A stretch of DNA of 38,671 nt from Candidatus Coatesbacteria bacterium (GCA_003647715.1 QMNJ01000001.1:1-38671), one strand, 5' to 3'; numbered from the stretch's first letter, positions 1,876-27,190 are shown. Made by a program: numbers and translations. The notes: generated by a model from the letters alone, not told the origin.

Positions 1876-2148
1876 TTATTCAACTCCAAATTTATCGTTT
1901 ATAAGATTTACAAGTTCTTCAATTGCAATATCAGCATCATCACCATCAGCAATCAGTTTTATTTTATGCCCCTTTGCACAGGCAAGCATCAACACGCCCA
2001 TAATAGATTTGGCATCAATGCGCTCACCGTCTTTCTCCACAAATATATCACTTTTGAACTTCTTTGCGGTCTGGACAAACTTGGCTGCTGGTCTGGCGTG
2101 AAGACCATACCTATTAAGTATCTCTACTTCTCGCTCTTTTATGGTCAT
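1876..2148 (-). CDS. ptsH: Phosphocarrier protein HPr
   Basis: 90 aa. GLHARPA (His15 site) and KSIMGVLML (Ser46 site for HprK) are both present. GGAGGA SD lies upstream of the ATG at 2148. Confidence 0.95.
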   Translation of the reverse strand: MTIKEREVEILNRYGLHARPAAKFVQTAKKFKSDIFVEKDGERIDAKSIMGVLMLACAKGHKIKLIADGDDADIAIEELVNLINDKFGVE

Positions 2149-2169
2149 TAAAAATCCTCCGTCTGTTAA

Positions 2170-2658: not shown

Positions 2659-2678
2659 ATAAATATATCTAAATCTGT

Positions 2679-4053: not shown

Positions 4054-4087
4054 ATTTGGTAATGACAACTTATAGTAATAATTAAAT

Positions 4088-4555: not shown

Positions 4556-4579
4556 ATTATTCCTCCCTGTAAAAATATG

Positions 4580-5095
4580 TTATAATGGTTTTAACAAACA
4601 AATCCTACCGTCAGTTCTTCTGTATAATACATTAACCCTGTCGGTATGAGCATCTATAAATGCAAAAAACTCGTGATTAGATGACCTGAAATGCTGTAGT
4701 GCTTCTTCCATCGTCATCGGTTTGTATTGTATATTATGAATAATAATCTCCTCTTCAGCAATGGTGGTTGTTTCCTCCTCAACGGTTGGTTCCGTTGCCG
4801 GTCGCTTTGATGATAAGTATCTATCCTTCTGGCGTCTTATCTGCTTTTCAATCTTATCAAATGCATTATTAATTGAGGTTCTGAGGTCGTTGGAATCATC
4901 AGTTCCCCTATAGGAATGACCTTTGGATTTTAGAGATACCTCAACGATATATCTGTGCTTTTCTAAACTTATCACCATATTTAGATTATCATAACCAAAT
5001 TTTAACATTCTCTCAATTTTAGATAACCTCTTATTTATATATTTCTCGGTTGATGGTGAAATTTCAATATTTTTACTCTGAATGTTTATAGCCAT
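4580..5095 (-). CDS. hpf: Ribosome hibernation promoting factor (long HPF)
   Basis: The N-terminus MAINIQSKNIEISPSTEKYINKRLSKIER is typical of sigma-54 modulation protein/HPF. The C-terminal FFAFIDAHTDRVNVLYRRTDGRICLLKP is the long-HPF dimerisation domain. GGAGG SD present. Confidence 0.9.
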   Translation of the reverse strand: MAINIQSKNIEISPSTEKYINKRLSKIERMLKFGYDNLNMVISLEKHRYIVEVSLKSKGHSYRGTDDSNDLRTSINNAFDKIEKQIRRQKDRYLSSKRPATEPTVEEETTTIAEEEIIIHNIQYKPMTMEEALQHFRSSNHEFFAFIDAHTDRVNVLYRRTDGRICLLKPL

Positions 5096-5116
5096 ATTAA
5101 CCTCCTTACCTTCTGT

Positions 5117-5995
5117 TCATACAGTCGCATGGTATGATGTTCTGGCTAATGGTTCTGATAATACACTTTCAAACCCCATCTCTTTCGCCCTCTCACCCCA
5201 TTCTTTAAATTCTTCTTCTGTATAGTATCTGCTTACTGGAACATTCGCATGTGACGGTCTTAAATATTGACCTATAACCAACTTCTTAACCTTCACATCT
5301 CTCAGGTCATACATCAGTTCCTCAATTTCTTCGTTTTTTTCACCCAATCCTAACATAAAGCCCGACTTTGTGGATATACCATCTTTCCTGCTGTTTATTT
5401 TTCGCAATATCTCAAGAGACCTATCGTAGTCAGCGCCAGGGCGAATGCTTTTATATAATCTTCTCACCGTCTCAATATTATGAGAGATACAGTATGGCTC
5501 ACTGTCTATGACCCTATTGAGGGCATCTTCATCACCATTGAAGTCAGGAATCAGTATCTCAACCTTTGTAGCAGGCGAGTGTTTTCTTATCATCTTTACG
5601 GTCTCGTAGAAGACCCCGGCGCCGCCATCCTGCAGGTCGTCTCTGGTAACTGATGTAATAACCACATAGTCCAGATTTAGCTCCCTTAGGGCTAATCCTA
5701 CCCTCTCGGGCTCATCTGGTTCAACTGGTAGTGGTATGCCACCGGTTACACCGCAGAAAGCACACCCTCTGGTGCATATATTCCCGAGTATCATAATAGT
5801 CGCTACGCCGGCGCTGAAGCACTCGCCCTTATTAGGACACTTCGCCTCCTCACATACCGTGTGAAGGCGGTATCGCTTCAATATATTGAGTATCCTTTTT
5901 GTGGAACCCGCCTCTGGCAATCCCGTCTTCTTATATCTTGGGGGTCTTCTCATATTATTCAAAGCGAGTGTATCATTCTTTCTGATAAGCCCCAT
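5117..5995 (-). CDS. lipA: Lipoyl synthase
   Basis: CEEAKCPNKGEC (auxiliary cluster, CX4CX5C) and CTRGCAFC (radical-SAM CX3CX2C). The ATG at 5995 has a GGTGAGG SD and overlaps the lpdA end by 37 nt. An alternative ATG lies at 5953. Confidence 0.95.
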   Translation of the reverse strand: MGLIRKNDTLALNNMRRPPRYKKTGLPEAGSTKRILNILKRYRLHTVCEEAKCPNKGECFSAGVATIMILGNICTRGCAFCGVTGGIPLPVEPDEPERVGLALRELNLDYVVITSVTRDDLQDGGAGVFYETVKMIRKHSPATKVEILIPDFNGDEDALNRVIDSEPYCISHNIETVRRLYKSIRPGADYDRSLEILRKINSRKDGISTKSGFMLGLGEKNEEIEELMYDLRDVKVKKLVIGQYLRPSHANVPVSRYYTEEEFKEWGERAKEMGFESVLSEPLARTSYHATV

Positions 5996-7326
5996 AATGC
6001 CTCACCTGTTGCCTCTGACAGGGTAGGGTGACTATGGACAAGGTCTTTGAACTCATCTGCTTTCATCTCAGAGAGTATTGCCAGTGAAATCTCACCAATC
6101 AATTCGCCAGCAGATAGACCGACTATGGTTCCCGATAGAATCCTTCCATCAGCACCTGAGATTATTTTAACGAAACCATCTGTCTCTCCCATCGCAAGTG
6201 CCCTTCCAAGCGCTCTAAAATGAAATGTGCTTGTTGTGTATTCATACCCGCTCTCTTTCAATTCATCCTCAGTGGGTCCCACTTGGGCTATTTCAGGTAT
6301 TGTATATACCACACTTGGAATAATATCATATCTCACCTTTCTTTTGTATCCAAGTATATTCTCTACCGCTATTACGCCTTCGTAGAATGCCTTGTGAGCC
6401 AGCATGGGGCGGGGAAGAATGTCGCCAATAGCATAGATATTGCCACAGCCAGTGTGGAGGTATTCATCGGTCTCCACAAAGCCACCGTTATTCAGCTTTA
6501 TACCACCTATATTGCTGAAACTATCGGTATTGGGAACCCTGCCAACCGATAGTAAGATACATTCTGCTTCAATCACTATGCCGTCCTCTAAGGTCGCTTC
6601 CAGACAGCCGTCCTTCTTTGTCCATCTCTTGATAGTAGTTTCTGTTGAAAGTTTTACTCCAAGTGATTTCAATTTTGATGCGATGACCCTTGAGGCGCGT
6701 TTATCACTGCCAGGAATTGCTCTATCAAGCAGTTCAACAAGATAAACCTTGACACCTATATTTGCGAATATATATGCAAACTCACATCCGATTGCACCCG
6801 CTCCAACCACTATCAATCTCGCTGGTGGTTTTTCTAGTTCAAGTATATCATCACTGGTCAGAATGTATTTGTTATCTATCTCAAGACCAGGTAATGAAGA
6901 AGGTTTTGAACCAGTAGCAAGAATTATATTGTTCGCCCTGATTTCCTCTACTCCATCAACCATAATTGTGTTCTCTGATGTAAGCTCTCCATATCCCTCT
7001 ATCAAGTCAACCTTTAACTTCTTCAAAAGGTGCAGAACACCATCCCTCAATGTTTTCACCACCTCTTCTCTCGTCTTCAACATGCGTTTGTAGTTGAATT
7101 CAGCATCTCTGATATCAACGCCGTATTCGCTTGAATTTAATGCTATGTTGTATCTGTGCCCTGCTTCTATCATCACCTTGGTAGGTATACAGCCCCGATT
7201 AAGGCAGGTGCCACCTACCTTATCCTTCTCTATTAGGGCTACACTCACTCCCATCTTCGCCGCCCTTATCGCTGCTACATATCCACCCGACCCTCCTCCC
7301 AGAATTGCTATATCATATTCCCTCAA
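5959..7326 (-). CDS. lpdA: Dihydrolipoyl dehydrogenase (E3)
   Basis: GGGSGGY FAD motif, redox disulfide GGTCLNRGCIPTK, second dinucleotide fold VVGAGAIGCEFA, and C-terminal HSHPTLSE. TTG start at 7326 with GGAGG 8 nt upstream. Confidence 0.93.
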   Translation of the reverse strand: MREYDIAILGGGSGGYVAAIRAAKMGVSVALIEKDKVGGTCLNRGCIPTKVMIEAGHRYNIALNSSEYGVDIRDAEFNYKRMLKTREEVVKTLRDGVLHLLKKLKVDLIEGYGELTSENTIMVDGVEEIRANNIILATGSKPSSLPGLEIDNKYILTSDDILELEKPPARLIVVGAGAIGCEFAYIFANIGVKVYLVELLDRAIPGSDKRASRVIASKLKSLGVKLSTETTIKRWTKKDGCLEATLEDGIVIEAECILLSVGRVPNTDSFSNIGGIKLNNGGFVETDEYLHTGCGNIYAIGDILPRPMLAHKAFYEGVIAVENILGYKRKVRYDIIPSVVYTIPEIAQVGPTEDELKESGYEYTTSTFHFRALGRALAMGETDGFVKIISGADGRILSGTIVGLSAGELIGEISLAILSEMKADEFKDLVHSHPTLSEATGEALWGLSERMIHSL

Positions 7327-7344
7327 ATCTCATACCTCCATTAT

Positions 7345-8685
7345 CTATATCCTCTTATTCCTTCTTACTACTCCAGATAATCTTTTTCTCTTCCACAACG
7401 ACGGTATATTAAGCATATCTCTGTATTTCGCTACTGTTCTGCGGGCAATATCATAACCATCCGCCTTGAGTTTTGCAAGTATCTCTTCATCCGATAGGGG
7501 ATTTCTGGGGTCTTCATCAGCGATTATCTCTTTTATCGCCTCCAGTATCTCCCTCTGTGATTTATCCCTGACCTTCTTGGTGAAGAATATCTTCATGGGA
7601 AGTATGCCATGCGGTGTCTTTATATACTTTGATGATACTGCTCTGCTTATCGTAGAGATTGATGTGCCCAGTTTGTCTGCTATATCCTCCATCTTCAGGG
7701 GTCTTATTCCCTTGAGACCCTCTTTTAAGAAGCGGGGTTGTGCGTCCAGCACCGCCTGAGATACCTCAAGGACTGTCTCCAGGCGCCGGTTCACCGTCCA
7801 GCGCATATCCTTTGCCTGCCTGAATAACCCTCTGATGAACCTCAAATCATCTTTCGTTACTCCCTCCGAATTCATAATTGTGTTATAGTATTCGCGCTTA
7901 ACTATCAGATTGGGACAAGCCCTGGGGTTAAGTCGCACCTTAAGACCACCATTTGCGGGCACTGCCTCCAGTTCCCACTCTCCAACCCGCTCAATGTCAT
8001 CCATACCCTCAGCCGGATATGGTCTGGCATTTCTTATCAGTATCTTAAACTCTTCAAACTTTTCCTCTGTAAGTTTGTATCTCTTTGAGATATCTGTGTA
8101 TTCAATTCCAGGATTCTTGATGTATGTTTTAACCAGTTGTTTCAAATTCTTTATCCTGAAACCCGCCTCACGCAACTGTATTTCAATTGCCTCCTCAACG
8201 CTCTCGGCACCTACTCCTGTCGGCTCCATCCTCTGTATCACCCTTTTGAGCACATCTCTAAGTTTGCTCTCCTCAATACCATACCACTTTGAGAGTTCAG
8301 TCACGGAGGCGGTAAAGAGACCCCGCTCATCTATCTCGCCTATAAGTATTTCGCCAATCTTTTTCTCCTCTTCACTTTCAACTAAAAGGTTTAACTGATT
8401 GAGAAGGTGACTCTGGAGGGAGGGCTTTCTATTAGCGATTTTTGCCTCCATCACCACTCGCCTATTGGGCTCGTAATCGGAGGTCGGCGCTGTTTCATCG
8501 GGATAATCCTCCTCTGTTGATTCATCAGAAACATCCACGAAAGGGTTCTGCTCAGCTGACTGCCTGAGGTAGGTTCTCAACTCCTGAGCCGGCATTCTGA
8601 GTATCTTGATGTATTCAAGAACCCTCGGCGCCATCTTCAATTTCTGCTTTATCTTCTGCTCGCTTTTCTGTGCTCTATCAACCAT
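7345..8685 (-). CDS. rpoN: RNA polymerase sigma-54 factor
   Basis: 446 aa with RpoN box ARRTVAKYR, HTH LGTSISTISRAV and region I-like QKLKMAPRVLEYIKILRMPAQEL. Confidence 0.93.
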   Translation of the reverse strand: MVDRAQKSEQKIKQKLKMAPRVLEYIKILRMPAQELRTYLRQSAEQNPFVDVSDESTEEDYPDETAPTSDYEPNRRVVMEAKIANRKPSLQSHLLNQLNLLVESEEEKKIGEILIGEIDERGLFTASVTELSKWYGIEESKLRDVLKRVIQRMEPTGVGAESVEEAIEIQLREAGFRIKNLKQLVKTYIKNPGIEYTDISKRYKLTEEKFEEFKILIRNARPYPAEGMDDIERVGEWELEAVPANGGLKVRLNPRACPNLIVKREYYNTIMNSEGVTKDDLRFIRGLFRQAKDMRWTVNRRLETVLEVSQAVLDAQPRFLKEGLKGIRPLKMEDIADKLGTSISTISRAVSSKYIKTPHGILPMKIFFTKKVRDKSQREILEAIKEIIADEDPRNPLSDEEILAKLKADGYDIARRTVAKYRDMLNIPSLWKRKRLSGVVRRNKRI

Positions 8686-9124
8686 AGTTATTCTATATAG
8701 TTTATTATAACTTGCGGTGCAGATTGTAGAACTATTATATGAGAATATATTTTGAAGAGTAAGGGTGTTTTCGCCAGGATTTTGATGTTCAGTAAATTCA
8801 ACTGTAGAATTAGTTATTGTTGGATAATTTTATGCCTTTAGAATTTATCTGTTTATCTTATTACTTTGAACGATTCTCTGAATACTTCATTCGCTCCTTC
8901 CATATATCTCAGTCTAAAAGATTCTTAACTCTTAGAGAGGTCTAATGATTGTTATTTTTATTTGTTAGCACGGTTTCTATTATGTCCATATACAATATTT
9001 CATTTTTGCTTAATATTGTTTAATTTGCCTTGAAAATAATGTTATTATTATGTAGAAAAACCGAGTGTTTTTTAACTATAATTTTGGCATAAAATAGTGT
9101 ATTATTAAAGAGATAAGAGATGTT

Positions 9125-12100
9125 ATGAAAGACCCGGGAAGAATAACCCTGGTTGTGGCGATAGGATTGGTTTTGTGTTTATCTATTACCTTCTCATATA
9201 CAGAAGAGTGGGTAGTAGATTATGCAGGTGTTAAGGCAACTATATCCAGCCCTGCCATTGGCGATGTCAATGGTGATGGCAGGAAAGAGGTAGTAATTGG
9301 CTCAGGAACCGGTGAGCTGTATGTATTTACCGGCTCGGGGAGTATTGCCACTGGTTTCCCAATTGACCTCGGTAGTTCAGTCATTTCGTCCCCAGTTCTT
9401 GCGAATATTGACTCCGATTCAGCACTTGAGATAATCATAGGAACAACCGATGGAAAATTGTATGCCTACAATGGCAATGGCTCAATTGTGTCGGGATTCC
9501 CTGTGGTTGCGGATGATGGAATAGTAGCAACACCCGCAGTAATTGACCTTGATAAAGACGGCAGGAACGATATTATAGTCCCCGCAGTTGATGGAAAACT
9601 CTATGCCTGGTCTGGTAGCGGTGGATTGTTGCCTGGCTTCCCTGAGAAGATCTCAAAGACAGGCAACCCAAGGGTAGAATCATCGCCTGCGGTTGGTGAT
9701 GTTGATGGCGATGGTAACATAGAGATTGCATTTGGTGCTGACGATGGTCGTGTTTACTTTTGCAGGTATGCTTCAGGTGTTCTATCGGTGATATGGTCTA
9801 GAAAGACCGGTTACTATGTAAGGTCAAGCCCCGCCATCGGTGATATTGATGGAGATGGTCTTTACGAGATTGTTGTGGGCAGTGATGACTACTCTGTCTA
9901 TGCCTTTGAACTATCTGGCTCGCCAGTTAGGGGTTTTCCTGTAAGCACCGGTTATAAACTGCGATATGTCTCACCCGCTCTTGCGGATATTGATTTTGAC
10001 ACTGTAGTAGAAGTGGTGGTTGCCAGTGGTGATGGTAATGTCTATGTCATAGATGAAGATGGGACATTTCTTCCTGGTTTTCCTGTAAATCTGAACAGTA
10101 AGGTTCTTTATTCCTCTCCGGTGGTTTCGGACATAGACGGAGATGGCAAGCTGGACATAATAGTCGGGTGTGAGAACGGGAATGTCTATGCTGTCTCAGG
10201 GGATGGCACCATAATGCCTGGCTATCCATATGTTCTGGGTGGAGCAGCTTATACCTCACCTGCGGTTGGTAACATAGATGCTGATTCAAGTTTAGAGATG
10301 GTGATAGGTGGAAAGGATGGGTTTTTATACTGTGTGGATGTTGGGGGGATGGAGTCGAGAGCCAACATGCCCTGGTCGCAGTTCAAGAAGGATAATTACA
10401 GAGATTCGGTATTTGGATTTGTAGGTGGTGTAGCTGAGTTGCCATCGGTCACCGTCTCGGATATAAATGATGAGGTCTCTGGTGATGTAACCATCAATTA
10501 TGTTCTCTCGGATAAGCAGGGTGATTACTTAAGCATTCAGGCAATGTATTCAGATGACGCAGGCAGGACCTGGCATGAGGCGAGTATTATTGGAAGGACT
10601 GAAAACATAGGTCCTTCCGAATACAAGGGCAGTTTATTGTGGAAGTCAAATGATGACCTCATAGGTCCGCTGGAGAAGAAGGGCGAGGCAGACCCCGTGC
10701 TCATCGCTGAGGAGAGGAGGGAATATAGAGAGCAGAAGGATATCAAGTTCAAGATTATACCATCTGATTCAAGTGGGATAGGAACCAGTGGTGAAACAAT
10801 ATTATTTCATGTTGATAATAATGTTGCACCATCAATAACAATTGAACCCATAGAGGGCGAGAAGACCGGGGATGTGGTATTCAATTATACAATATCTGAT
10901 GAAGAGCAAGACCTGATAGGTTTACAGTTTGAGTATTCTCTTGACAGTGGTGAGACATGGAAACCCGCCACTGTTTCGGGTGCGACTACATCTATACGCC
11001 CAGCCAGGTATTCCGGACAATGCACATGGGATTCGGTGGCTGATTGTCAGGCGATTGATTCAGAGAATGTGATGTTCAGGATAATCGCATATGATAACGA
11101 CCCTGGACCTCCCGGTTTCTCAAACAAATTTCACCTTGATAACAATACACCTCCCAGGGTCATTGTTGAGGATATCCTTGAAGAGGTAGGGGGAGACATT
11201 GTAATTAATTATCAATTGCAGGACAGGGAGGAGGATAAGCTGTCACTTGACTGCTTCTATTCACTTGATAGCGGCGAGAACTGGGAGAAGGCAACGGTGG
11301 AGGGGAACATAACCGATATAACCTCTACCGATTATAAGAGTAATCTGGTGTGGAAGAGTTTGGATGACACCAGAGGTGTTGATATAAGGACGACGCAGTT
11401 CAAGATAGTTCCTATGGACAATGACGAGGGAAAGATAGATACCACCAGTAATTTCCACCTTGATAATAACAATCCGCCTGCGGTCAAGGTTGCAGAGGTG
11501 GTAGGTGAGCAGACGGGCGAGTTTCCCATTGGCTTTACAATCAGTGATGATGAGGGTGACGAGGTGTCGTTGTTATGTGAGTATTCCAAGGATAAAGGGC
11601 AGTCGTGGATAAACGCTACGGTCAGTGGACGCTTAAGCGGTATAAAACCTGCTGATTATTCCAGTGAATTGATGTGGGACTCAATAATTGACCTTCTTGG
11701 AGTGGATTCTGCAGAGATACTGTTCAGGATAACGCCTTCCGACGCAGATGTTGGTGAGCCGGGTGTAAGCGGAATGATTTATGTAGATAATAACAAACCA
11801 CCATCAATATTACTGTCAGATTTCACTGAGGAGCAGAGTGGTGATATAGATGTCTATTTCACCGTCTCTGACCTTGAGAGGGATACTGTGAGTTTATACT
11901 GTGAGTATTCACCTGATGCCGGCACAACCTGGTATGAGGCGACAGTGTCAGGTAATACTGATTTCGGGGAGGAAGGATATATTGGGCATATTACCTGGAA
12001 TTCACTTGTTGATGTTCCTGACCAATATCTTGAAAAAACCAGGTTCAGAATAACACCTTCTGATAATGATGAGGGTGAGCCGGGGACGACCAATAACTTC

Positions 12101-15100
12101 ATCGTTGATAACGACAATCCACCAACCGTTGTCGTTATGGGTGTCAGCGGTGAACAAGCAGGAGATATAACTATTCCTTATGAGATAAGCGATAAAGAAG
12201 GCGACCCGGTCTCGTTATTTGTTGAATATTCAGTTGATGGGGGTGAAAACTTCTATCCAGCAACTATAACCGGCTCTTTGGAGGGCATCACCGTAGGCAG
12301 TTACAGAGGCGCCTTTACCTGGGAATCAGAGCGTGATATTAAGGGTGTTGATTCAACTCAAGTCCTGGTGAGAGTGACCCCATCTGACCTTGATGCGGGT
12401 GAACCAGGGATATCGCCTCCCATCTGGGTGGACAATAATACGCCTCCGACAATCTCTCTTTCAGATGTTTCAGGCGAACAGTATGAGGATGTTGTCATTG
12501 ATTACTCCATAGATGATATGGAATCAGACCTGGTGAGTTTGATATGTGAGTTTAGTGAGGACGGTGGTTTGAACTGGAAACCCGCTACGGTTGAGGGCTT
12601 TATTGAGGAGATAGACAGCACCGGTTATTTAGGCTCTGTGATATGGAGAAGCGATTCTGACCTGCCTGGCACTGACCAGATGGATATTAGGTTCAGGATA
12701 ACACCAGTTGATAATGATACTGGAACCCCTGGGGAGACAGAGAACTTCCATCTTGATAATAACGAACTTCCATCTATTATAGTTGAGGATATCACAGAAG
12801 AGCAGAGTGGTAATGTCTCTGTCTCATATAAACTGGAGGATGCTGAGTATGATGCCAGTATGATAAAGGTTGAATACTCAAGTGATGGTGGTTTCACCTG
12901 GCACCCCGCAACTGTTGCCACAAAACTGGAGATTGACCCCGCCCGATATGCTGGAACAGTTATGTGGACATCGGAGGCGGATTTACCAGCGATTGACAGC
13001 CACGATGTTATGGTGAGAATTACACCATTTGATAACGACGAGGGCTTCCCCGATGAGACCGACCCATTCCACCTTGACAATAATCAACCACCTGTTGCAG
13101 TGGTTGACGATATACTGGAAGAGGTATCTGAGGATGTGAGAATCTCGTTCTCGCTTGATGATAATGATGGGGATATACTGTCAATAGATGCTGAATACTC
13201 AACCGATGGAGGAGAAACATGGAACACGGCGACTATAACGGGTGACACCGTCAATCTACGACCTCCATATTCAGGCAGTATAATATGGAACTCTACACTT
13301 GATGTTCTGGGGTTAGACAGCGACGATGTGGTATTTAAGATAATACCATCGGATAATGATGTCGGTGAGGCGAAAGTGAGCAATAGTTTCCACCTGGACA
13401 ACAACAGTTTGCCCATATCCTTCGTGGCGGATATTCATGACGAGAGCTCGGGGGATATAGATATTGAATATTCACTTCAGGATGACGAGAGAGACCCGTT
13501 GAGTATCACCTGTTTCTACTCAGATGATGGTGGCTCTACCTGGCGAGAGGCAACCGTTTCGGGAACCACCACCGGTATAACCGAGGTGGGATATGAGGGC
13601 TCTGTAATATGGCATTCTAAAGAAGACCTATTAGGTGTAGATAGAGATGACATTATGTTCAAGGTGGTTGCCAGCGATAATGATACTGGTGAGAGAGCAA
13701 GTCCAGGTCTTGTAGTGCTTGACAACAATAACACACCGAGGGTTGAGGTCAATGCACCTGAGGGTGAGAGTTCAGGAATTGTCAGGGTTCCGGTTGATAT
13801 CTCGGATGATGAGGGTGATATGATTGAACTGGTATGTGAGTTTTCCATAGATGGTGGACAGGTATATCAGCCGGCAACAGTGATAAGTCCAAAGGGTCAG
13901 ATACACACCTCGGAGTATTCAACATTCATTGAATGGGATTCAATGAATGACATAGAGGGACTTGATGTTGAGGATGTGAGATTTAAGGTTATACCATGGG
14001 ATGAGGATGAGGGAGAGGCATCTGTGTCACCACCATTCCATGTTGATAACAATATTCCGCCGATGGTTGAAGTAGCAGGTATTACCGAAGAGGTTTCAGG
14101 TGAGGTCTTTGTTGACTTCACTATTGAGGATGTTGAGAATGATAATGTAAGTATGAAGGTTGAATATTCAATTGATGGTGGAAGAACATGGGCACCTGCT
14201 ACAATAGATGGCAATATGAATAATATAACAAGTTTGATGTATGCTAATACATTTGTGTGGAGAAGCGACCAGGATGTTCCATCAGCCGATTTGACCGATG
14301 TCGCCTTACGGCTCACCCCTAGCGATAGAGATGTTGGAGAGCCGGCTATTGTCTCGCCCATTCACCTTGATAATAACATACCTCCCGAGGTCACTGTTAC
14401 TATTCCCTCTGGTGAACTCACGGGTGATGTGGATATTGGCTATACAATCAGTGACCCCGAGGGAGACACTGTATCATTGATGATGGAGTATTCAGTAGAT
14501 GGTGGAATAACCTATAACGAGGCGACCATAAGTGGACAGATAAGCGGTATTACCCCTGCGAGATACTCTGGAGTTATAAAGTGGGATTCAGGTGCGGATA
14601 TTGCCGGTGTGGATTCAGGGGATATAAGATTACGGGTGGTTGCAATGGATGCGGATGAGGGTAAACCGTTTGAGAGCGAACTAATAAGTGTGGACAATAA
14701 CATTCCACCAGATGTATCTCTTGGTAGTTATGAATTCTCACCCACCGGTGATATAATATTGCTCTATCATCTCTCTGATAATGAGGGTGACAGTTTGAGT
14801 TTGGTGTGTGAATACTCGGAGGATGGAGGTTCCACATTCAAGAATGCAACCATTATGGGGCTTACCACCGATATAACACCAAAGGAGTATGATGGTGAAC
14901 TTATATGGGCAGTGGGAACCGACCTTCCGGGGAAGGTCCTATCAGATGTGCTATTCAGGATAACTCCGTATGATACAGAAGCGGGTCAGCCGGAGACATT
15001 GGCAATAGGTAAACTTGATACCAATATTCCACCTACCTTGAATGTTATTGAACCGTTTGAGGAGGTGTCTGGTGATGTGGCAATAAGTTACTCAATTTAT

Positions 15101-15658
15101 GACCCGGAAGAGGATACAGTGGATTTGAAGGTTGAATATTCGGTGGATGGTGGGATGACATTTAAGGAAGCGACTATAAGGTCTGGTAGCACGGGGATTA
15201 GTTCGTCTGGATATCTGGGCAAGTTTGTATGGGATACAAGGGCAGACCTTGATAATAAGGAATTTAATGTCGTTTTAAGGGTTACAGCAAGCGATATAAA
15301 AGAAGGCGAGGAGATAATAACGCCTTCATTTCCTGTTGATAATAACAGACCACCGAAGATATCAATAAAGAGTTATGCATTGAGCGAAGATAAGGAGACG
15401 GTATCTATTGAATTCACCATTCTGGATGATGAAAGGGACAAGGCGAGAATTAAGTGTCAGTTCAGCGAGGATGGGGGGGTCACATGGAACGATGCTACAG
15501 TTGAGGGAATGACCACCGACCTTGTTCCGGATGGATTATATAAGCTTATATGGAAGAAGTCAGAAGACATCCCAACCATTCTTGAGGGGGCGAGAATCAA
15601 GTTTAAGATAATTCCATTTGATTATGATGAGGGAACATCAAGTGAATTAGAGTTATAA
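9125..15658 (+). CDS. Giant (2177 aa) predicted cell-surface/adhesin-like protein: N-terminal signal/anchor, 8 FG-GAP-like propeller blades, 16 tandem Asp-box modules
   Basis: A single uninterrupted ORF. The hydrophobic N-terminus is MKDPGRITLVVAIGLVLCLSITF. The internal repeat structure is listed separately below. No paralogue or known gene name recognised. Confidence 0.9.
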   Translation: MKDPGRITLVVAIGLVLCLSITFSYTEEWVVDYAGVKATISSPAIGDVNGDGRKEVVIGSGTGELYVFTGSGSIATGFPIDLGSSVISSPVLANIDSDSALEIIIGTTDGKLYAYNGNGSIVSGFPVVADDGIVATPAVIDLDKDGRNDIIVPAVDGKLYAWSGSGGLLPGFPEKISKTGNPRVESSPAVGDVDGDGNIEIAFGADDGRVYFCRYASGVLSVIWSRKTGYYVRSSPAIGDIDGDGLYEIVVGSDDYSVYAFELSGSPVRGFPVSTGYKLRYVSPALADIDFDTVVEVVVASGDGNVYVIDEDGTFLPGFPVNLNSKVLYSSPVVSDIDGDGKLDIIVGCENGNVYAVSGDGTIMPGYPYVLGGAAYTSPAVGNIDADSSLEMVIGGKDGFLYCVDVGGMESRANMPWSQFKKDNYRDSVFGFVGGVAELPSVTVSDINDEVSGDVTINYVLSDKQGDYLSIQAMYSDDAGRTWHEASIIGRTENIGPSEYKGSLLWKSNDDLIGPLEKKGEADPVLIAEERREYREQKDIKFKIIPSDSSGIGTSGETILFHVDNNVAPSITIEPIEGEKTGDVVFNYTISDEEQDLIGLQFEYSLDSGETWKPATVSGATTSIRPARYSGQCTWDSVADCQAIDSENVMFRIIAYDNDPGPPGFSNKFHLDNNTPPRVIVEDILEEVGGDIVINYQLQDREEDKLSLDCFYSLDSGENWEKATVEGNITDITSTDYKSNLVWKSLDDTRGVDIRTTQFKIVPMDNDEGKIDTTSNFHLDNNNPPAVKVAEVVGEQTGEFPIGFTISDDEGDEVSLLCEYSKDKGQSWINATVSGRLSGIKPADYSSELMWDSIIDLLGVDSAEILFRITPSDADVGEPGVSGMIYVDNNKPPSILLSDFTEEQSGDIDVYFTVSDLERDTVSLYCEYSPDAGTTWYEATVSGNTDFGEEGYIGHITWNSLVDVPDQYLEKTRFRITPSDNDEGEPGTTNNFIVDNDNPPTVVVMGVSGEQAGDITIPYEISDKEGDPVSLFVEYSVDGGENFYPATITGSLEGITVGSYRGAFTWESERDIKGVDSTQVLVRVTPSDLDAGEPGISPPIWVDNNTPPTISLSDVSGEQYEDVVIDYSIDDMESDLVSLICEFSEDGGLNWKPATVEGFIEEIDSTGYLGSVIWRSDSDLPGTDQMDIRFRITPVDNDTGTPGETENFHLDNNELPSIIVEDITEEQSGNVSVSYKLEDAEYDASMIKVEYSSDGGFTWHPATVATKLEIDPARYAGTVMWTSEADLPAIDSHDVMVRITPFDNDEGFPDETDPFHLDNNQPPVAVVDDILEEVSEDVRISFSLDDNDGDILSIDAEYSTDGGETWNTATITGDTVNLRPPYSGSIIWNSTLDVLGLDSDDVVFKIIPSDNDVGEAKVSNSFHLDNNSLPISFVADIHDESSGDIDIEYSLQDDERDPLSITCFYSDDGGSTWREATVSGTTTGITEVGYEGSVIWHSKEDLLGVDRDDIMFKVVASDNDTGERASPGLVVLDNNNTPRVEVNAPEGESSGIVRVPVDISDDEGDMIELVCEFSIDGGQVYQPATVISPKGQIHTSEYSTFIEWDSMNDIEGLDVEDVRFKVIPWDEDEGEASVSPPFHVDNNIPPMVEVAGITEEVSGEVFVDFTIEDVENDNVSMKVEYSIDGGRTWAPATIDGNMNNITSLMYANTFVWRSDQDVPSADLTDVALRLTPSDRDVGEPAIVSPIHLDNNIPPEVTVTIPSGELTGDVDIGYTISDPEGDTVSLMMEYSVDGGITYNEATISGQISGITPARYSGVIKWDSGADIAGVDSGDIRLRVVAMDADEGKPFESELISVDNNIPPDVSLGSYEFSPTGDIILLYHLSDNEGDSLSLVCEYSEDGGSTFKNATIMGLTTDITPKEYDGELIWAVGTDLPGKVLSDVLFRITPYDTEAGQPETLAIGKLDTNIPPTLNVIEPFEEVSGDVAISYSIYDPEEDTVDLKVEYSVDGGMTFKEATIRSGSTGISSSGYLGKFVWDTRADLDNKEFNVVLRVTASDIKEGEEIITPSFPVDNNRPPKISIKSYALSEDKETVSIEFTILDDERDKARIKCQFSEDGGVTWNDATVEGMTTDLVPDGLYKLIWKKSEDIPTILEGARIKFKIIPFDYDEGTSSELEL
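9245..10342 (+). repeat. Eight FG-GAP/VCBS-like beta-propeller blade repeats (coding, aa 41-406 of the giant protein)
   Basis: Eight copies at roughly 47-50 aa spacing of the pattern SSPA(I/V)GD(I/V)(D/N)GDG..E(I/V)(I/V)(I/V)G..DG.(L/V)Y(A/V)..(G)..G...GFP. Examples: SSPAIGDVNGDGRKEVVIGSGTGELYVF, SSPAVGDVDGDGNIEIAFGADDGRVYF, SSPVVSDIDGDGKLDIIVGCENGNVYAV. Confidence 0.8.
10436..15655 (+). repeat. 16 tandem in-frame coding modules of 321/324 nt (107-108 aa). Module 1 is 129 aa with an insertion and module 16 is 103 aa.
   Basis: Module starts counted from the sequence: about 10436, then 10823, 11147, 11471, 11795, 12116, 12440, 12764, 13085, 13406, 13730, 14054, 14378, 14702, 15026 and 15347. 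Consensus: xPPxvxVxdixgEqsGDvxIxYxlsDxEgDxvSLxcEYSxDGGxTWxxATvxGxxxxIxxxxYxGxxxWxSxxDlxGvDsxdvxFRItPsDnDxGxPgxsxxFhlDNN. The copies are diverged at the nucleotide level. Confidence 0.9.
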
Positions 15659-15668
15659 AGGATTCTAT

Positions 15669-16826
15669 ATGGCTGAGGAAAAGAAACTGTATCTGAGAGT
15701 AAAAGGTGTTGAGCACGGACCCTTCACTGTGGAAGAGGTAAAGACCTGGATTGAGGGTGGGAAGTTCAAGCCAACCGACTATATAAGAATGGAGGGGATG
15801 AAGCACTGGGTGATGGCTAAGAACCTGGTTCACCTCAAGGAATATTTTGATGCCAAGAAGGAGGAGGATAGAAAGGGAGCATTTGCTTCATGGCTGGGAC
15901 AGGTTAGAGAAGGTAAGCCACCTATTGTGTTGACTCCCACTGGTGTAACGGAGGAGCATACAAGGATTGCAGAGGCAAGGAAGCAACTTGAAGAGGATGC
16001 GAAGCGACTTGAAGAGAGAGAAGCGGAGTTAAGGGAGCAGATAGAGAGGGAGTTAACCAAGAAGCAGGAGGAGGAGTTTGAGAGATTGCGTAAGGAGAGA
16101 GAGCGTCTTGAGGAACATCGGATGGAGTTAGAAGAAGCCGAGATAGAGATAAAACAGATGGAGAAGACGGTGAGGAGGAGAAGGAGAATACCCTTGATAA
16201 TAGCAGGGGCTGTTATAGTTGCAGTTATTGCGGTCAGCACTCCAATTGTTATTAATTACTACAAGAGCACGAAGGAGTTGCAGGAGGCAATCAATAGAAT
16301 AGACATAATTGACAATGAGATTAAGAACCTGATGGCTAAATTAGAAGATGCAGAGACAACGATGGAGAGAGAAGCAATAATGGAGAAGATAGAGGAGTTG
16401 AAGAAGGAGAGGGAGGAATTGGTCAAAGAGGTTGAGAAGAAAGGCGGAGGGGAACCAATTGAAAATATTGAGACCACCCTCGGTAGTGTCAGTATTACAG
16501 GTCCGTTAAGCATTATCGGTCCAGGGTCTGATGACCCATCAAGGAGCTCTTCTACGGTGGATTCCATCATCAGAGGTAGAATGGGTGCAATCAATAGTGT
16601 TTACAACCGAGAATTAAGGAGCAATCCATCGCTAGAGGGAAAGGTAGTAGTATCGTTTACTGTATCCTCTGATGGGACGGTTACCCGAGCTAATGTAATA
16701 TCCTCCACACTCAGCAACTCCAAACTTGAGAATGCAATTGTCTCTAATATTATGCTCGCTAGATTCCCAAGCACCAGCAGTGGTGATATTACGGTTACTT
16801 ATCCGTTTACCTTTGAAACAAAATAA
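15669..16826 (+). CDS. GYF_2 domain / coiled-coil / single TM / AgmX-PglI-type (TonB_C-like) C-terminal domain protein (GltJ-like architecture)
   Basis: N-terminus GPFTVEEVKTWIEGGKFKPTDYIRMEGMKHWVMAKNL has the GYF_2 pattern. An E/K/R-rich coiled coil follows, then RRRRR and the TM IPLIIAGAVIVAVIAVSTPIVINYY (aa 174-197). The C-terminus GRMGAINSVYNRELRSNPSLEGKVVVSFTVSSDGTVTRANVISSTLSNSKLENAIVSNIMLARFPSTSSGDITVTYPFTF fits the AgmX/PglI / TonB_C pattern. AAGGA SD present. The start lies 10 nt after the giant gene stop. Confidence 0.7.
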   Translation: MAEEKKLYLRVKGVEHGPFTVEEVKTWIEGGKFKPTDYIRMEGMKHWVMAKNLVHLKEYFDAKKEEDRKGAFASWLGQVREGKPPIVLTPTGVTEEHTRIAEARKQLEEDAKRLEEREAELREQIERELTKKQEEEFERLRKERERLEEHRMELEEAEIEIKQMEKTVRRRRRIPLIIAGAVIVAVIAVSTPIVINYYKSTKELQEAINRIDIIDNEIKNLMAKLEDAETTMEREAIMEKIEELKKEREELVKEVEKKGGGEPIENIETTLGSVSITGPLSIIGPGSDDPSRSSSTVDSIIRGRMGAINSVYNRELRSNPSLEGKVVVSFTVSSDGTVTRANVISSTLSNSKLENAIVSNIMLARFPSTSSGDITVTYPFTFETK

Positions 16827-16839
16827 TATGTAGTAATCT

Positions 16840-17970
16840 TTACCTTACAAGGTTTAATTTCTCTTTTACAAATTGCATTATCTCTTCGGGGTCTATATCC
16901 TCCCAACATATCATCCTAACGCAGTTCTCAAGGTATCCATCTCTATAACAGGGAGCACATTTTACACGGGGGCTGATAATAATTGAATTATCGTTTTTAT
17001 ATGGTCCATATCTAACTGGATTAGTCGGTCCAAAGATTACAATGGTGGGTGTCTTGAACGCAGACGAAATATGGAGGGGGAGGGAGTCATTAGTTATCAA
17101 TAGGCGAGAGCACTTTATTACTGCCGATACCTCTGGGATGGTAGTTTTACCAGTAATGTCCGTGATATTTGAAGATAGAGAGGCAAGTATTCTAGCCCTT
17201 TTTCTATCACTTTTGCTACCAATGATTAAAATTGGAATACTTAATGAACAAAGTTTCTGAACGAGTGCATTCCATTTGTTAATTGGCATTAATTTATTAG
17301 GCATCTTTGTCTTTGGGTTGTCGCCACCACCAGGTGCTATGACTATGTATTTCTCTGAGATGCCCGCATCCTTTAATTGCTTTTCTACTTTATTGGTCAC
17401 TTTCTCTGTGAGGAATATCTCAAGCCCTTTATCCTCAGGTTTACCACCGAGTGAGAGAACCACATTGAGGTATTCATCTGCCTGATGTATTGTCTCATCA
17501 TATTCAGTTGAGTAGTTCAGAAGTGCTCCCTCACCCCTGCGGTTTATTCCTGCCAGGATACCAGAGCAGATAATTCTAAATATCAGCGCGAAGGCAAATG
17601 AGTGATGAAATAGAATACAGAGGTCGTAGTCCTGTTTTCTTATGTCAAGCATTAGTTGCATTATTTTAATTGGGTTGAGAGAGATAAATATAGATTCATC
17701 CACTGTCAATATTCTGTTAATGTTAGGATTGGTAGCAATGATTGGTGATGACCTAATCCCTGTCAGGTAGTTAATCTCTGCATTGGGGAATAATCTTCTC
17801 AGGGTTCTCAGGGCGGGTGTGGTAAGAAGGACCTCACCAGTAGCCCATATTTTGACCACGAGTATCTTTTTAACCTTCTGAGGTCTTTTAGTTCTATTCT
17901 TAAAAGGACTTATGAGAGGAGATATTGCTCTACCGGCAAGTGAACTCAGATTTTCAATCATGAACGGCAT
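16840..17970 (-). CDS. Glycosyltransferase family 9 (heptosyltransferase-like)
   Basis: KILVVKIWATGEVLLTTPALRTLRRLFPNAEINYLT (GT9 N-terminal motif) and LITNDSLPLHISSAFKTPTIVIFGPTNP (GT9 C-terminal motif). Confidence 0.85.
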   Translation of the reverse strand: MPFMIENLSSLAGRAISPLISPFKNRTKRPQKVKKILVVKIWATGEVLLTTPALRTLRRLFPNAEINYLTGIRSSPIIATNPNINRILTVDESIFISLNPIKIMQLMLDIRKQDYDLCILFHHSFAFALIFRIICSGILAGINRRGEGALLNYSTEYDETIHQADEYLNVVLSLGGKPEDKGLEIFLTEKVTNKVEKQLKDAGISEKYIVIAPGGGDNPKTKMPNKLMPINKWNALVQKLCSLSIPILIIGSKSDRKRARILASLSSNITDITGKTTIPEVSAVIKCSRLLITNDSLPLHISSAFKTPTIVIFGPTNPVRYGPYKNDNSIIISPRVKCAPCYRDGYLENCVRMICWEDIDPEEIMQFVKEKLNLVR

Positions 17971-19363
17971 ATATCTCTACCTCCCCTATCTCTTTGAATA
18001 AATAGTAATCATCTTTGATTAAGACCTTTATCTTGTCAGGACTATCAATACCCAGGATGACCCATTGTGGTTTCTGATTCAGTATTATCTGGCACTGTTC
18101 TTCGTGTGAGGGCAGGTGATATTTAGTTCTCTCCTCCTCAGTCAGCAGGTCTGATATTCTTCTGGAGAACTCGCCCAGAAGTAGGTCAGGGTGAGGTATG
18201 CCACTGGTGACATATCCGCTCCACCAGGTTGCGACCACATCATCTTCGTCAACATATTCATCTGTGAAGTCCTGGACTTTCACTATTTCGCTGATTCCAA
18301 CCATAGGTTTAGCATAGTAATTCATAGCAACCCTCCCCAAAGGTCTAACAAGCCCTGTTATGATGAAAAAGAGCATTACAGTTGTTATCAAAATAGATTT
18401 CTTTCGTGATGCTGTTAAATGGTGGATTAAATGGTTGGATGAGATGGCGGTAAATGGAACCAATAATACCAGATACTGGAGTGAAGCAGATATGGGTATA
18501 ATACTGATAATAAGGATGACCAGGACATATAGAGATGATATGCGCTCTATCATTTCAGTTCTTCTGCGGAATAATCTAAATATAGCGATTACTGCGAGTA
18601 TGACTATTATCGCTGAGTTGGGGTCTAATGCCATTTCTTTCACTATGCTAAATCTCGTCATCTGCGACTTATAACCACTGAGTGCGGTGGTGTGAATGCC
18701 GATTACATTGAACAGTAGATAATCGGTGTATTTGAGTGTATAAAATATGATAGGTATTATGCCCGCTATTAATCCGGAGAGAAATGGATAGATATTCCAA
18801 CGATTATTAGTTCTATTGAAGCAGTATATAGGGATGATTATTATGGGTATTAGGATGATTCGTGAAGATATAACAAGACCTGTGAAGAATCCGGACAGAA
18901 GCGCAAATATCAATCGTTTGTTATTGATAGAAAGTATCAAAAACATTATTGAGATAATCAGTAGTAGTATGGTCAGTGAATAGACCTTGACAGGTGATAA
19001 CCAGTTGATTGTTAGATATGAGAAACTGAATATATAGAGTGGTAAACTGCTTGCTTCATTGGTTGTTCTGATTAGCAGGTATAAGATGGTAAGTGAGGTT
19101 ATTGCAAGGGCAACACTGAGGAATCTTCCGGCAATCAGAGATGTCCCGGTAACCTTGAAGAGCAGGGCATATAATAGTGTAGTTAGGGGTGTGTGTGGCA
19201 ATGGAATGTCTCTGTATAATTCATACCCTCTGTTCAAGAGATGTGCTGAGCCAATCCAGAATCCCTCGTCCCTATCCACCGGTCTGTTATATATCTGAGT
19301 TATTAATATAATAGAGAATATGATTAAGATGACTGCAAATGTTCTATTAAGGTTTTTTAACAT
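17954..19363 (-). CDS. Polytopic GT-C glycosyltransferase, PMT_2/ArnT (GT39/GT83)-like
   Basis: 469 aa with about 10 or more hydrophobic helices. The first loop DRDEGFWIGSAHLLNRGYELYRDIPLPHTPL resembles the acidic DE loop of ArnT/PMT enzymes. There is a soluble C-terminal domain. Its end overlaps the GT9 start by 17 nt. Confidence 0.65.
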   Translation of the reverse strand: MLKNLNRTFAVILIIFSIILITQIYNRPVDRDEGFWIGSAHLLNRGYELYRDIPLPHTPLTTLLYALLFKVTGTSLIAGRFLSVALAITSLTILYLLIRTTNEASSLPLYIFSFSYLTINWLSPVKVYSLTILLLIISIMFLILSINNKRLIFALLSGFFTGLVISSRIILIPIIIIPIYCFNRTNNRWNIYPFLSGLIAGIIPIIFYTLKYTDYLLFNVIGIHTTALSGYKSQMTRFSIVKEMALDPNSAIIVILAVIAIFRLFRRRTEMIERISSLYVLVILIISIIPISASLQYLVLLVPFTAISSNHLIHHLTASRKKSILITTVMLFFIITGLVRPLGRVAMNYYAKPMVGISEIVKVQDFTDEYVDEDDVVATWWSGYVTSGIPHPDLLLGEFSRRISDLLTEEERTKYHLPSHEEQCQIILNQKPQWVILGIDSPDKIKVLIKDDYYLFKEIGEVEIYAVHD

Positions 19364-19378
19364 AACCGATTTTTTCTG

Positions 19379-20593
19379 TTATTTCTTACTTCTTTGCCTT
19401 TTATGGTAATTATAGACATTGGTCAGGATTTTCTCTAATGCTTCAGCGTGTTTACCCCATGACTGCTCTTCTTGAATGTATCGGGTAGCATTATCAGATA
19501 GTTTCTGTCTTAATGATGAGTTGTCTCTTATCATCTTGATTGCCTGTGCATATTCATCCGGTTTATCGGGATTGACCAGAATTCCTCTCTCACCATAGCC
19601 GACTATCTTCTCCAGGGTGTCATATTTACTCACTACCACGGGGAGTCCACTTGCCAGGTATTCCATCAATTTTGCCGGTGCCCAGAAGAACCCAAATTCC
19701 TCCAGTGGTTTGTAATAGGAGGCATTGAACGGTGCAAGCCCCACATCGCTTATTGCCATAAGGTAGGGAATTGTTTTGTAGGGCTGGGGACCAAGATAGA
19801 GACAGTATCTCCCGAGACCATTAGAGTGGATGTATTCCATCAATCTTGCCTCTTCGCCCCCTCCACCCACGAGCAAGAAAAGTGCATCTGGAATAATCCT
19901 AGAGGTGTGATAGATAATATCAGGAAGGTCATATATTCCCTGCCATTCTCTGAATGAGCCGACGAATAAGATGAGAAACCTGTTATTTAGATTGTATTTT
20001 TCTATTATTTCTCTGGCGGTGTTAGTATTTCTTAGGTTCTTGTTAAATCTTGAGTGGTCTGCACCCCAGAAAAGTAGGTAGGTTCTGTCTCGTGCGAAGT
20101 CAGGAACTACAGTAGATATTGTGGTAATATTTGCACTTGACTGTCTAAACTGAAAGTTGACCCAGGATTTGAGGGGTGCTTTAATGATGGGCGATTTTAT
20201 CTTCCAGCGGTGTATAATCTCATCAACATGTGGACTGTTCACTTCCAGAACCAGAGGTGTTCTCTTCAGAAATGAGTATATTGCACCAAGACCCCCTGCA
20301 GTTATATATCTCTCCATAACTATATCAAAGTTCTTGTTAAGAAGTGATGGGAGATAGGGGATGGATATCAGTGGGAGTTTTATGCTAATGACCTTCTGCC
20401 AGACCCTGATGACCTTGACGCCATCAACATTTTCAAGGGCACGCTGGTCGTTGCGCCTTAAAGAGAACAGCGTTACCTGGTGTCCAAGTCGGACCAGATT
20501 CCTGGCGACCTCAAAGGTATGAACCGCACCAGCGTGGCTTGCGGGAACATCCTCACATGAGAAGTATAGTATTTTCAATGAGTGGTTATTCAT
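19379..20593 (-). CDS. Glycosyltransferase family 4 (GT-B, group 1)
   Basis: N-terminus HAGAVHTFEVARNLVRLGHQVTLFS and C-terminal E..FG.....KLMEYLASGLPVVVS (EX7E-type region). ATGA start/stop overlap with the upstream gene at 20590-20593. Confidence 0.85.
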   Translation of the reverse strand: MNNHSLKILYFSCEDVPASHAGAVHTFEVARNLVRLGHQVTLFSLRRNDQRALENVDGVKVIRVWQKVISIKLPLISIPYLPSLLNKNFDIVMERYITAGGLGAIYSFLKRTPLVLEVNSPHVDEIIHRWKIKSPIIKAPLKSWVNFQFRQSSANITTISTVVPDFARDRTYLLFWGADHSRFNKNLRNTNTAREIIEKYNLNNRFLILFVGSFREWQGIYDLPDIIYHTSRIIPDALFLLVGGGGEEARLMEYIHSNGLGRYCLYLGPQPYKTIPYLMAISDVGLAPFNASYYKPLEEFGFFWAPAKLMEYLASGLPVVVSKYDTLEKIVGYGERGILVNPDKPDEYAQAIKMIRDNSSLRQKLSDNATRYIQEEQSWGKHAEALEKILTNVYNYHKRQRSKK

Positions 20594-27189: not shown

Positions 27190-27190
27190 G

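Follow-up and report, generated by a model that had tools for sequence, protein, structure and literature searches.

Two adjacent genes of Candidatus Coatesbacteria encoding a giant Ig-repeat protein and a GYF/TonB-C bitopic protein: a candidate envelope-spanning tether

Do two adjacent genes of Candidatus Coatesbacteria, both annotated 'hypothetical protein', specify a structure that spans the cell envelope, and is such a structure related to the gliding machinery of myxobacteria? The window analysed here is a complete contig of 38,671 bp from a Candidatus Coatesbacteria metagenome-assembled genome (MAG; GCA_003647715.1, QMNJ01000001.1:1-38671). The first gene (gene 1, the giant gene; 9125-15658, plus strand; RLC43875.1, DRH49_00055) is an open reading frame (ORF) of 2177 codons for amino acids, and the second (gene 2; 15669-16826, plus strand; RLC43876.1, DRH49_00060) codes for a bitopic inner-membrane protein of 385 residues. 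A preliminary description, made from the sequence alone, had proposed that they form an adhesion module of a giant adhesin and a GltJ-like coupler, possibly belonging to a gliding- or focal-adhesion-like system outside the Myxococcota. We read the pair as a TonB/TolA/GltJ-type connector accompanied by a giant immunoglobulin (Ig)-like repeat surface protein, and the best explanation is a lineage-specific cassette of Candidatus Coatesbacteria. The interpretation that we favour, with a probability of roughly 0.45, is a two-gene envelope-spanning tether in which the bitopic GYF/TonB-C protein holds or positions an exported, acidic, fixed-length fibre. The finding at present is a well-described hypothetical operon and not a demonstrated system.

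The two genes lie on the same strand and are separated by just 10 nt (15659-15668, plus strand), a gap that contains the sequence AGGA. Terminator-like sites were sought throughout positions 8500-17200; none lies between the two genes, and the five found elsewhere in that region equal the number expected from shuffled sequence. Because the gap is short and lacks a terminator, both as described previously, the giant gene and gene 2 are probably co-transcribed. The giant gene is divided from rpoN (minus strand) by a divergent intergenic spacer of 439 nt (8686-9124) with a GC content of 26.7%, compared to 42.3% for the window, and the AT-rich upstream region of the preliminary description is thus real. 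The spacer includes a sigma-70-like promoter candidate at 9053-9082 (consensus match TAGAAA-18-TATAAT). A sigma-54 promoter was also considered, the spacer being next to rpoN, and was rejected, as a search permitting two mismatches found no -24/-12 consensus match there.

The giant protein starts with a predicted Sec-type signal peptide (residues 1 to ~24; 9125-9196, plus strand), read from its hydrophobic N-terminus, and the mature form is ~233 kDa with a pI of ~4.05, containing 11% Asp and 16% Ser plus Thr. Residues ~30-430 (9212-10414, plus strand) form a head with an FG-GAP/VCBS-type beta-propeller, which matches the Pfam families FG-GAP_3 (84 bits), FG-GAP (64 bits) and Beta-prop_ACSF4 (92 bits) and has about eight D-x-D-x-D-type repeats at a spacing of 47-50 residues, the motif positions having been placed partly by eye; a match to NF052323 is limited to the FG-GAP part of that model. 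The remainder, residues 434-2177 (10424-15655, plus strand), consists of 16 tandem Ig-like beta-sandwich repeats, delineated by repeat analysis and AlphaFold2 (AF2) modelling. They start at residues 434, 564, 672, 780, 888, 995, 1103, 1211, 1318, 1425, 1533, 1641, 1749, 1857, 1965 and 2072, with a period of 107-108 residues apart from a first repeat of ~130, and the C-terminus of the protein is the exact end of repeat 16. Each repeat has an internal Asp-box (S-x-D-x-G-x-T-W) and an acidic DNNxPP linker at its end, both of which are among the invariant positions. An AF2 model of two repeats (pLDDT 91.8, pTM 0.74) contains two Ig-like beta-sandwiches, and Foldseek searches with this pair return generic Ig tandems only. 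A PDB sequence search with the repeats finds only Asp-box fragments of sialidases and reelin, with Cadherin-23 at an E-value of just 0.25. The Pfam BNR and Reelin_subrepeat-B matches are likewise driven by the Asp-boxes, no curated family covers the repeat beyond such fragments in Pfam, and Cadherin, BIg and RTX (HemolysinCabind) domains give no Pfam match at E <= 0.01. The acidic DNNxPP junctions are probable Ca2+-binding sites that would make the stalk a stiff rod, for which a rough estimate, assuming 4-4.5 nm per Ig-like domain, is a length of about 70 nm; the fibre would be located at the cell surface.

Comparison with related loci, designated L001, L009 and so on and totalling 474 kb, shows that the size of this array does not vary. 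The full-length giant orthologues are all 2177-2225 residues long with exactly 16 repeats, and their repeat boundaries are at matching positions. When all 16 repeats are compared with all 16 of the 49%-identical orthologue in L009, 13 of them are closest to the repeat of the same number, and identity averages 51% between repeats of equal number and 39% between the others, such that the 16-repeat array appears to have been fixed before these lineages split and not to have been homogenised since. The constant repeat number, the narrow length range and the orthology by position fit a structural element of defined length, and suggest that the length of the giant itself matters or is under selection. 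Repeat-rich surface proteins do not usually keep a fixed array in which each position is conserved.

The gene 2 protein has a GYF_2 domain at its cytoplasmic N-terminus (residues 8-53; 15690-15827, plus strand; Pfam GYF_2, 33.2 bits), followed by a conserved helix at residues 65-80, in which A71, F72, W75 and V79 are invariant together with G82 just beyond it (alignment A1). AF2 predicts a long helical stretch at residues 90-173, which is probably a coiled coil, and the protein is probably dimeric through such coiled coils. A single transmembrane helix (residues ~175-197; 16191-16259, plus strand), evident from the sequence and alignment A1, is preceded by RRRRR and has conserved prolines at positions 175 and 192. 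In the AF2 model (pLDDT 78) this helix continues to residue 259, giving a periplasmic helix of ~60 residues, and a conserved linker motif (residues 269-292) then precedes the periplasmic C-terminal domain (residues 293-384; 16545-16820, plus strand). This domain is of the TonB/TolA fold and of the AgmX/PglI (GltJ/GltG) subtype, with an alpha-beta-beta-alpha-beta order over residues 294-384 and a score of 87 bits against the AgmX/PglI C-terminal model NF033768 (cut-off 40). The gene 2 family profile matches the solved GYF domain of GltJ (7z3c; E 2e-3, with a fold match of TMt 0.57) and the C-terminal domains of TonB proteins in the PDB (6sly at E 1.7e-5 by profile; 6sly, 7zc8 and 6fip at TMt 0.5-0.63 by Foldseek). 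Sequence conservation extends over the full length of gene 2, including the cytoplasmic helix, the RRRR-membrane segment and the linker motif (alignment A1). The earlier domain-level description of both proteins is therefore borne out by Pfam, NCBIfam and AF2, although the label 'GltJ-like' is only partly apt: it suits the domain composition (GYF_2, one membrane helix, NF033768), whereas the scores for the equivalog models of GltJ (NF033761; 29.5 bits, cut-off 450) and GltG (NF033760; 65 bits, cut-off 650) fall well below threshold and reflect the C-terminal domain alone. No FHA domain is detected in gene 2 by Pfam or NCBIfam, and because the protein has no cysteine and its GYF domain starts at residue 8, it lacks both a zinc ribbon (ZnR) and a ZnR-GYF linker.

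The complete architecture of gene 2 is scarce. Full-length members form 14 clusters among 5.8 billion proteins, and an exhaustive profile search of 1.84 billion representatives recovers roughly nine full-length clusters. At E <= 1e-10 the profile matches 3,897 clusters, and in the listed matches outside the full-length family it is the C-terminal domain that aligns best. The abundance of matches to the C-terminal domain alone identifies that domain as a common module and the whole architecture as rare.

The simplest account of such a protein would be an ordinary TonB paralogue that energises TonB-dependent receptors for nutrient uptake. The domain passes the thresholds for PF03544 TonB_C (27.4 bits, cut-off 24.6) and TIGR01352 tonB_Cterm (36.6 bits, cut-off 27.1), its fold matches, and homologues are named 'TonB family protein' in some sources. 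The AgmX/PglI model nonetheless scores far higher than either TonB model, and the cytoplasmic module of ~170 residues, with GYF domain and coiled coil, is foreign to TonB. The membrane helix has no His and no Ser/His (SHLS-type) motif in the sequence or in alignment A1; such a motif functions in the membrane helices of TonB and TolA. A proline-rich periplasmic spacer is also missing, the protein having just 14 prolines in 385 residues and a helical periplasmic part in the AF2 model. No ExbB/D gene, no other MotA/ExbB/TolQ-type gene and no TonB-dependent receptor gene is present in the window or within 10 kb in the five annotated contexts. Gene 2 is thus not the generic TonB paralogue that would have told against the preliminary description, and we regard an ordinary role in nutrient uptake as highly improbable.

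The pair is found in several related lineages. The two genes lie next to each other, with the order unchanged, in the window and L018 (100% identity), L019 (gene 2 64%, giant 73%), L001, L002, L020 and L021 (63% and 70%), L005 (52% and 57%), L023 (50% and 49%) and L009, which is from a Candidatus Coatesbacteria MAG (49% and 49%, with the giants collinear over ~2200 residues). Adjacency is thereby kept in six lineages at identities down to ~49%, with flanking genes that vary between clades. The intergenic gap is 5-25 nt in three lineages, which suggests an operon, and 92 nt in L009. The window itself belongs to an isolated lineage outside the Myxococcota, as indicated by its RpoN, which is 100% identical to Coatesbacteria MAG proteins, with next relatives at ~60% and then 32%; the placement outside the Myxococcota in the preliminary description is accordingly correct. 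The distribution of giant orthologues rests mainly on a metagenome scan; a word-indexed search with a two-repeat profile returned three fragments and missed known orthologues, and says little about distribution.

Both genes also occur apart. About ten loci carry a gene 2 homologue and no giant. In L006 the homologue follows repeat proteins with type IX secretion system (T9SS) tails, in L016 it lies directly after a PMT_2 gene, and a subfamily of 436 residues is present in L003, L004, L007, L008 and L010-L015, one of these loci being from a Candidatus Zixiibacteriota MAG. A gene for a small outer-membrane protein (OMP) beta-barrel of 188-202 residues is always located 5' of the 436-residue subfamily (at least nine Zixibacteria-type loci), and beyond it, where the upstream DNA suffices, is a divergent gene for a tetratricopeptide repeat (TPR) protein of 773-795 residues. 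This trio loosely recalls TolA-Pal-CpoB, or the GltJ, outer-membrane barrel and TPR components. Separately, the 436-residue subfamily and the giant orthologues of high GC content (L024, L025) may, as their GC content hints, come from similar organisms. In nearly all lineages, the product of the gene 5' of gene 2 is an exported or outer-membrane protein. Conversely, four giant orthologues (L022, L024, L025, L026) lack a gene 2 homologue within the 5-10 kb downstream, where the genes instead encode T9SS-tailed proteins, an AAA ATPase, a zinc-ribbon protein or, on the opposite strand, a symporter; these giants are full-length (2191-2213 residues), except that a contig edge truncates the L026 copy at its 5' end. 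The pairing that the preliminary description expected to be conserved in relatives is conserved, yet it is not obligate in either direction.

A tether could operate as follows. The giant would be Sec-exported and present an integrin-alpha-like FG-GAP propeller head on its stalk of 16 Ig-like domains. At the inner membrane, the cytoplasmic GYF domain of gene 2 could dock a proline-rich or other cytoplasmic partner, while the periplasmic helix and linker would carry the TonB/TolA-fold domain towards the outer layers. There it would bind an exported or outer-membrane partner through beta-strand augmentation, as the TonB, TolA, GltG and GltJ domains do, and in this clade the partner would be the giant fibre or its outer-membrane conduit. 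The outcome would be a physical link from cytoplasm through envelope to surface fibre that could serve in anchoring, positioning or signalling. We favour this tether because the genes are adjacent with no terminator between them, because of the Ig-tandem model of the giant and the architecture and folds of gene 2, and because the pair is kept in six lineages while elsewhere the gene that immediately precedes gene 2 repeatedly codes for an exported or outer-membrane protein. It is further favoured by the conservation of gene 2 throughout, the fixed length of the giant and a probable diderm envelope; genes of the lipid A acyltransferase and heptosyltransferase families nearby point to such an envelope, which would need to be spanned.

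Several observations weigh against the tether. By Pfam and NCBIfam the giant has no T9SS tail (Por_Secre_tail/TIGR04183-type), RTX or type I secretion system (T1SS) motif, autotransporter domain or lipobox, and more generally no membrane anchor or known sorting signal. An N-terminal Sec signal is an unusual route for T1SS substrates. The T9SS-tail models do work in this lineage, since they score neighbouring genes in relatives as positive. Paralogous repeat-protein arrays with T9SS tails (Por_Secre_tail) adjoin the giant in L022 (11572-16603) and gene 2 in L006 (2-2293), and these lineages seem to use T9SS cargo signals, though the giant has no tail. Lipoprotein anchoring was rejected because the single cysteine of the giant (Cys18) is not conserved in the 70%-identical L001 orthologue (...LLYSLAFS/IKEEW). 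No terminal docking motif is seen in the giant that would separate orthologues with a partner from those without. Contact between the giant and the gene 2 protein is something that we infer, and 'adhesin' is a name applied to the giant by analogy. The partnerless giants and the gene 2 homologues without a giant, those in L016 and of the 436-residue subfamily among them, count on the same side.

The main rival explanation makes use of several of these same observations. The two genes could be independent neighbours, with the giant a free secreted or surface fibre (adhesin or S-layer-like), gene 2 a general or TolA-like tether with some other partner, and their adjacency an inherited gene order with no functional coupling. 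The loss of adjacency both ways, including the four giants with no partner downstream, is expected if they are independent, as is the location of gene 2 homologues beside small OMP, T9SS cargo or PMT_2 genes; that no terminal motif of the giant correlates with partner presence, and the 92-nt gap in L009, are also in keeping with it. Nevertheless, the order has been kept in six lineages at ~49% identity amid differing flanks and so outlasts the usual random gene order, the 5-25 nt gaps suggest an operon, and the recurrence of an exported or outer-membrane product from the gene 5' of gene 2 is not accounted for. We consider independent neighbours a serious but rather unlikely explanation, and retain the tether as the preferred one.

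Is the pair part of a gliding apparatus? The preliminary description drew attention to two Roadblock/LC7 genes preceded by a TPR gene about 12.4 kb downstream, and the positions are as reported: a TPR protein gene (29205-30281, plus strand) starts 12,379 nt past gene 2, and genes for proteins of 118 residues (30288-30644, plus strand) and 116 residues (30683-31033, plus strand) follow. The second of the small proteins passes Pfam Robl_LC7 (25.5 bits, cut-off 23); the first has no Pfam or NCBIfam match, but aligns end to end with M. xanthus MglC (PDB 7ct3, Roadblock fold; 60 bits, E 1.8e-15) and is better described as an MglC homologue. UniRef labels both 'Roadblock/LAMTOR2 domain-containing'. 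In the FDI surface of the MglC homologue D26, G27 and I28 are kept, and F25 is replaced by Ile. MglC-type Roadblock proteins are associated with group-1 MglA (PMC4719450), so that the presence of the homologue predicts, by this association, a group-1 MglA elsewhere in this genome. As stated previously, neither a stator gene nor a small GTPase gene is present in the window, and tblastn with an MglA query finds no MglA-like sequence in the window or the 474 kb of related loci. MglB (about 160 residues, with a C-terminal helix) and RomR were not found.

The cluster is arranged in the order TPR, MglC-like, Roadblock, efp, accB, M48 peptidase and accC. An alternative assembly of this species, L035, matches the window from exactly the 3' end of the tRNA-Lys gene onwards, and different, DegT-type genes are located to the left of that point (L035:1-863); the junction is either a strain-level breakpoint or the edge of an island, or else the product of chimeric assembly. 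As the Roadblock cluster breaks from the pair at the tRNA within the species and sits among efp, accB and accC, its proximity is no evidence of a shared function.

A simplified Agl-Glt-like gliding or focal-adhesion core, in which a stator moves the GltJ-like protein and thereby drags the adhesin under MglA/MglB/MglC control, would draw on the GYF domain, membrane helix and AgmX/PglI C-terminal domain that gene 2 has in common with GltJ (architecture in PMC11135422), on the full-length MglC homologue beside Roadblock and TPR proteins on the same contig, and on the propeller that the M. xanthus adhesin CglB also has (PMC11761067). GltJ comprises a ZnR (residues 1-42), an MglA-GTP-binding linker, GYF (138-222), a membrane helix, a disordered periplasmic region and TonB-C, and its cytoplasmic ZnR-linker-GYF switch binds MglA-GTP, MglB and AglZ (PMC11135422). 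Gene 2, lacking the zinc ribbon, does not have the ZnR-linker switch that binds MglA and MglB, and its GltJ and GltG equivalog scores are far under the cut-offs. Proteins in which an N-terminal GYF domain precedes a membrane module are common among bacteria, and ZnR-GYF proteins outside the Myxococcales do not correlate with MglAB or AglZ (PMC11135422). Furthermore, the searches for MglA and for MotA/ExbB/TolQ-type genes were negative as given above, the window has no GltA/B/H/K, CglB or VWA homologues, and the Roadblock cluster lies at a distance of 12-13 kb, surrounded by housekeeping genes. Nor does the MglC homologue point specifically to gliding, as type IV pilus motility in M. xanthus is likewise controlled by MglA and MglC (PMC4719450). 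A gliding core is therefore improbable and stays speculative, as the preliminary description itself held. A related version, in which an integrin-like fibre held by a GltJ-type connector is engaged by a polarity system (MglC-like, Roadblock and TPR proteins, with MglA encoded elsewhere) and serves regulated, possibly force-bearing attachment or gliding, seems to us similarly doubtful.

Should the tether be correct, it would extend the GltJ-type domain design beyond the Myxococcota. For Candidatus Coatesbacteria, a candidate phylum on which we found only metagenomic surveys in the literature, it would offer an initial clue to the biology of the cell surface. If the giant and the gene 2 protein form one assembly, it would be a very compact link, made up of a single bitopic tether with its GYF adaptor and a single exported protein, between the cytoplasm and a surface fibre that is tens of nanometres long. 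The MglC homologue is in itself a new lead, and the group-1 MglA that it predicts in this genome can be tested for.

Among the neighbouring genes, those immediately downstream are on the opposite strand, and we confirm that a glycosylation operon converges on the pair. Its GT9 gene (16840-17970, minus strand) ends 13 nt from the stop of gene 2 (16827-16839), and domain annotation of the whole convergent operon (16840-27201, minus strand) gives the order GT9, PMT_2, GT4/GT1, PMT_2 and YfhO-like GT-C, for envelope glycosylation, and then an energy-coupling factor (ECF)-type ABC ATPase and QueT. The segment 16840-24626 contains three GT-C-type membrane enzymes, the two PMT_2 proteins and the 810-residue YfhO-like protein, which is weakly similar to PgfM1/PgfM2. 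These enzymes could glycosylate the Ser/Thr-rich giant or modify the envelope. The glycosyltransferase block accompanies the pair only in the closest clade (L001/L002 and L019) and is absent in L009 and L023.

Beyond the operon is a tRNA-Lys(UUU) gene (27231-27303, plus strand), the only feature found in an Rfam scan of the window. It overlaps the 5' end of a mechanically called ORF (27272-29029), whose true start is at 27353. The resulting gene (27353-29029, plus strand; start taken from gene calls) encodes a divergent alkaline-phosphatase-superfamily protein of 558 residues with no Pfam match; by BLASTP it is 27% identical over its full length (E 2e-52) to the product of a Phosphodiest gene, L009:11235-13109. 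On visual inspection, the window copy seems to have degenerate versions of the usual metal and nucleophile motifs. A Phosphodiest gene lies directly 3' of gene 2 in L009, L023 and L006 (with a domain match in L009 and L006), and the homology of the 558-residue protein gene to this neighbour of gene 2 suggests that in the window a 10.4-kb glycosyltransferase/ECF block and the tRNA gene separate genes that adjoin each other in the other clade.

On the other side, positions 127-8685 are divergent from the giant gene and hold an rpoN-hpf-ptsN-hprK cluster, mannose-family phosphotransferase system (PTS) EIIA/EIIB, HPr and enzyme I genes, and lipoate synthase-like and dihydrolipoamide dehydrogenase-like genes. 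The remaining content of the window is ordinary (PTS/HPr kinase, ptsN, hpf, rpoN, lipoate-related genes, efp, accB, accC and comB). Other assemblies, reached through the TPR gene, extend the contig by ~2 kb, adding an aminotransferase gene, a 91-residue ORF and an AMP-binding enzyme gene, and all assemblies break there; PtsI, HPr and the truncated aminotransferase led to no further sequence.

Comparison with known systems places gene 2 and the giant in different company. GltJ (AgmX) and GltG (PglI) are bitopic like gene 2, with a cytoplasmic adaptor (GYF in GltJ), one membrane helix and an AgmX/PglI TonB-C domain (PMC11135422, PMC11761067). The GltJ model nevertheless has 671 positions, compared to the 385 residues of gene 2, GltJ contains the zinc ribbon and ZnR-GYF linker that are absent from gene 2, and its periplasmic segment is long and disordered, whereas that of gene 2 is helical. 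The Agl/Glt partners are not near gene 2, and the host belongs to a different phylum from M. xanthus. The AglRQS (TolQR/MotAB-type) motor has no counterpart in the window or within 10 kb in the five annotated contexts, and for the outer-membrane platform of GltA/B/H/K with CglB (a lipoprotein with propeller and VWA domain) no such OMP beta-barrel, VWA protein or lipoprotein is encoded in the window. The protein at 30288-30644 shares with MglC (MglB_orphan1) of M. xanthus its end-to-end alignment and three positions of the FDI surface (PMC4719450), but it is encoded in a TPR-Roadblock-efp-accB cluster and not with the MglA, MglB and RomR of the M. xanthus polarity module. TonB and TolA have in common with gene 2 the membrane helix, a periplasm-spanning segment (helical as in TolA domain II) and the C-terminal alpha/beta fold; they differ in that gene 2 has a large cytoplasmic GYF and coiled-coil part, no SHLS-type motif and no Pro-rich spacer, and their partners (ExbBD/TolQR, a TonB-dependent receptor, Pal/TolB) are not adjacent in the Coatesbacteria loci. 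The giant is closest in design to integrin alpha ectodomains and to bacterial giant adhesins of the FG-GAP/VCBS-Ig kind, in which a propeller head with D-x-D-x-D-G Ca2+-type loops is likewise borne on an Ig-like stalk, and its strongly acidic character and junction motifs recall the Ca2+-stiffened linkers of cadherin or BIg domains. It differs from those adhesins in having no anchor, T9SS tail, RTX/T1SS signal, autotransporter domain or Cadherin Pfam match, and in a repeat type, Ig-like with an internal Asp-box, that matches no curated family beyond Asp-box fragments. The number of repeats, which is usually variable in adhesins, is fixed at 16 across the giant lineages.

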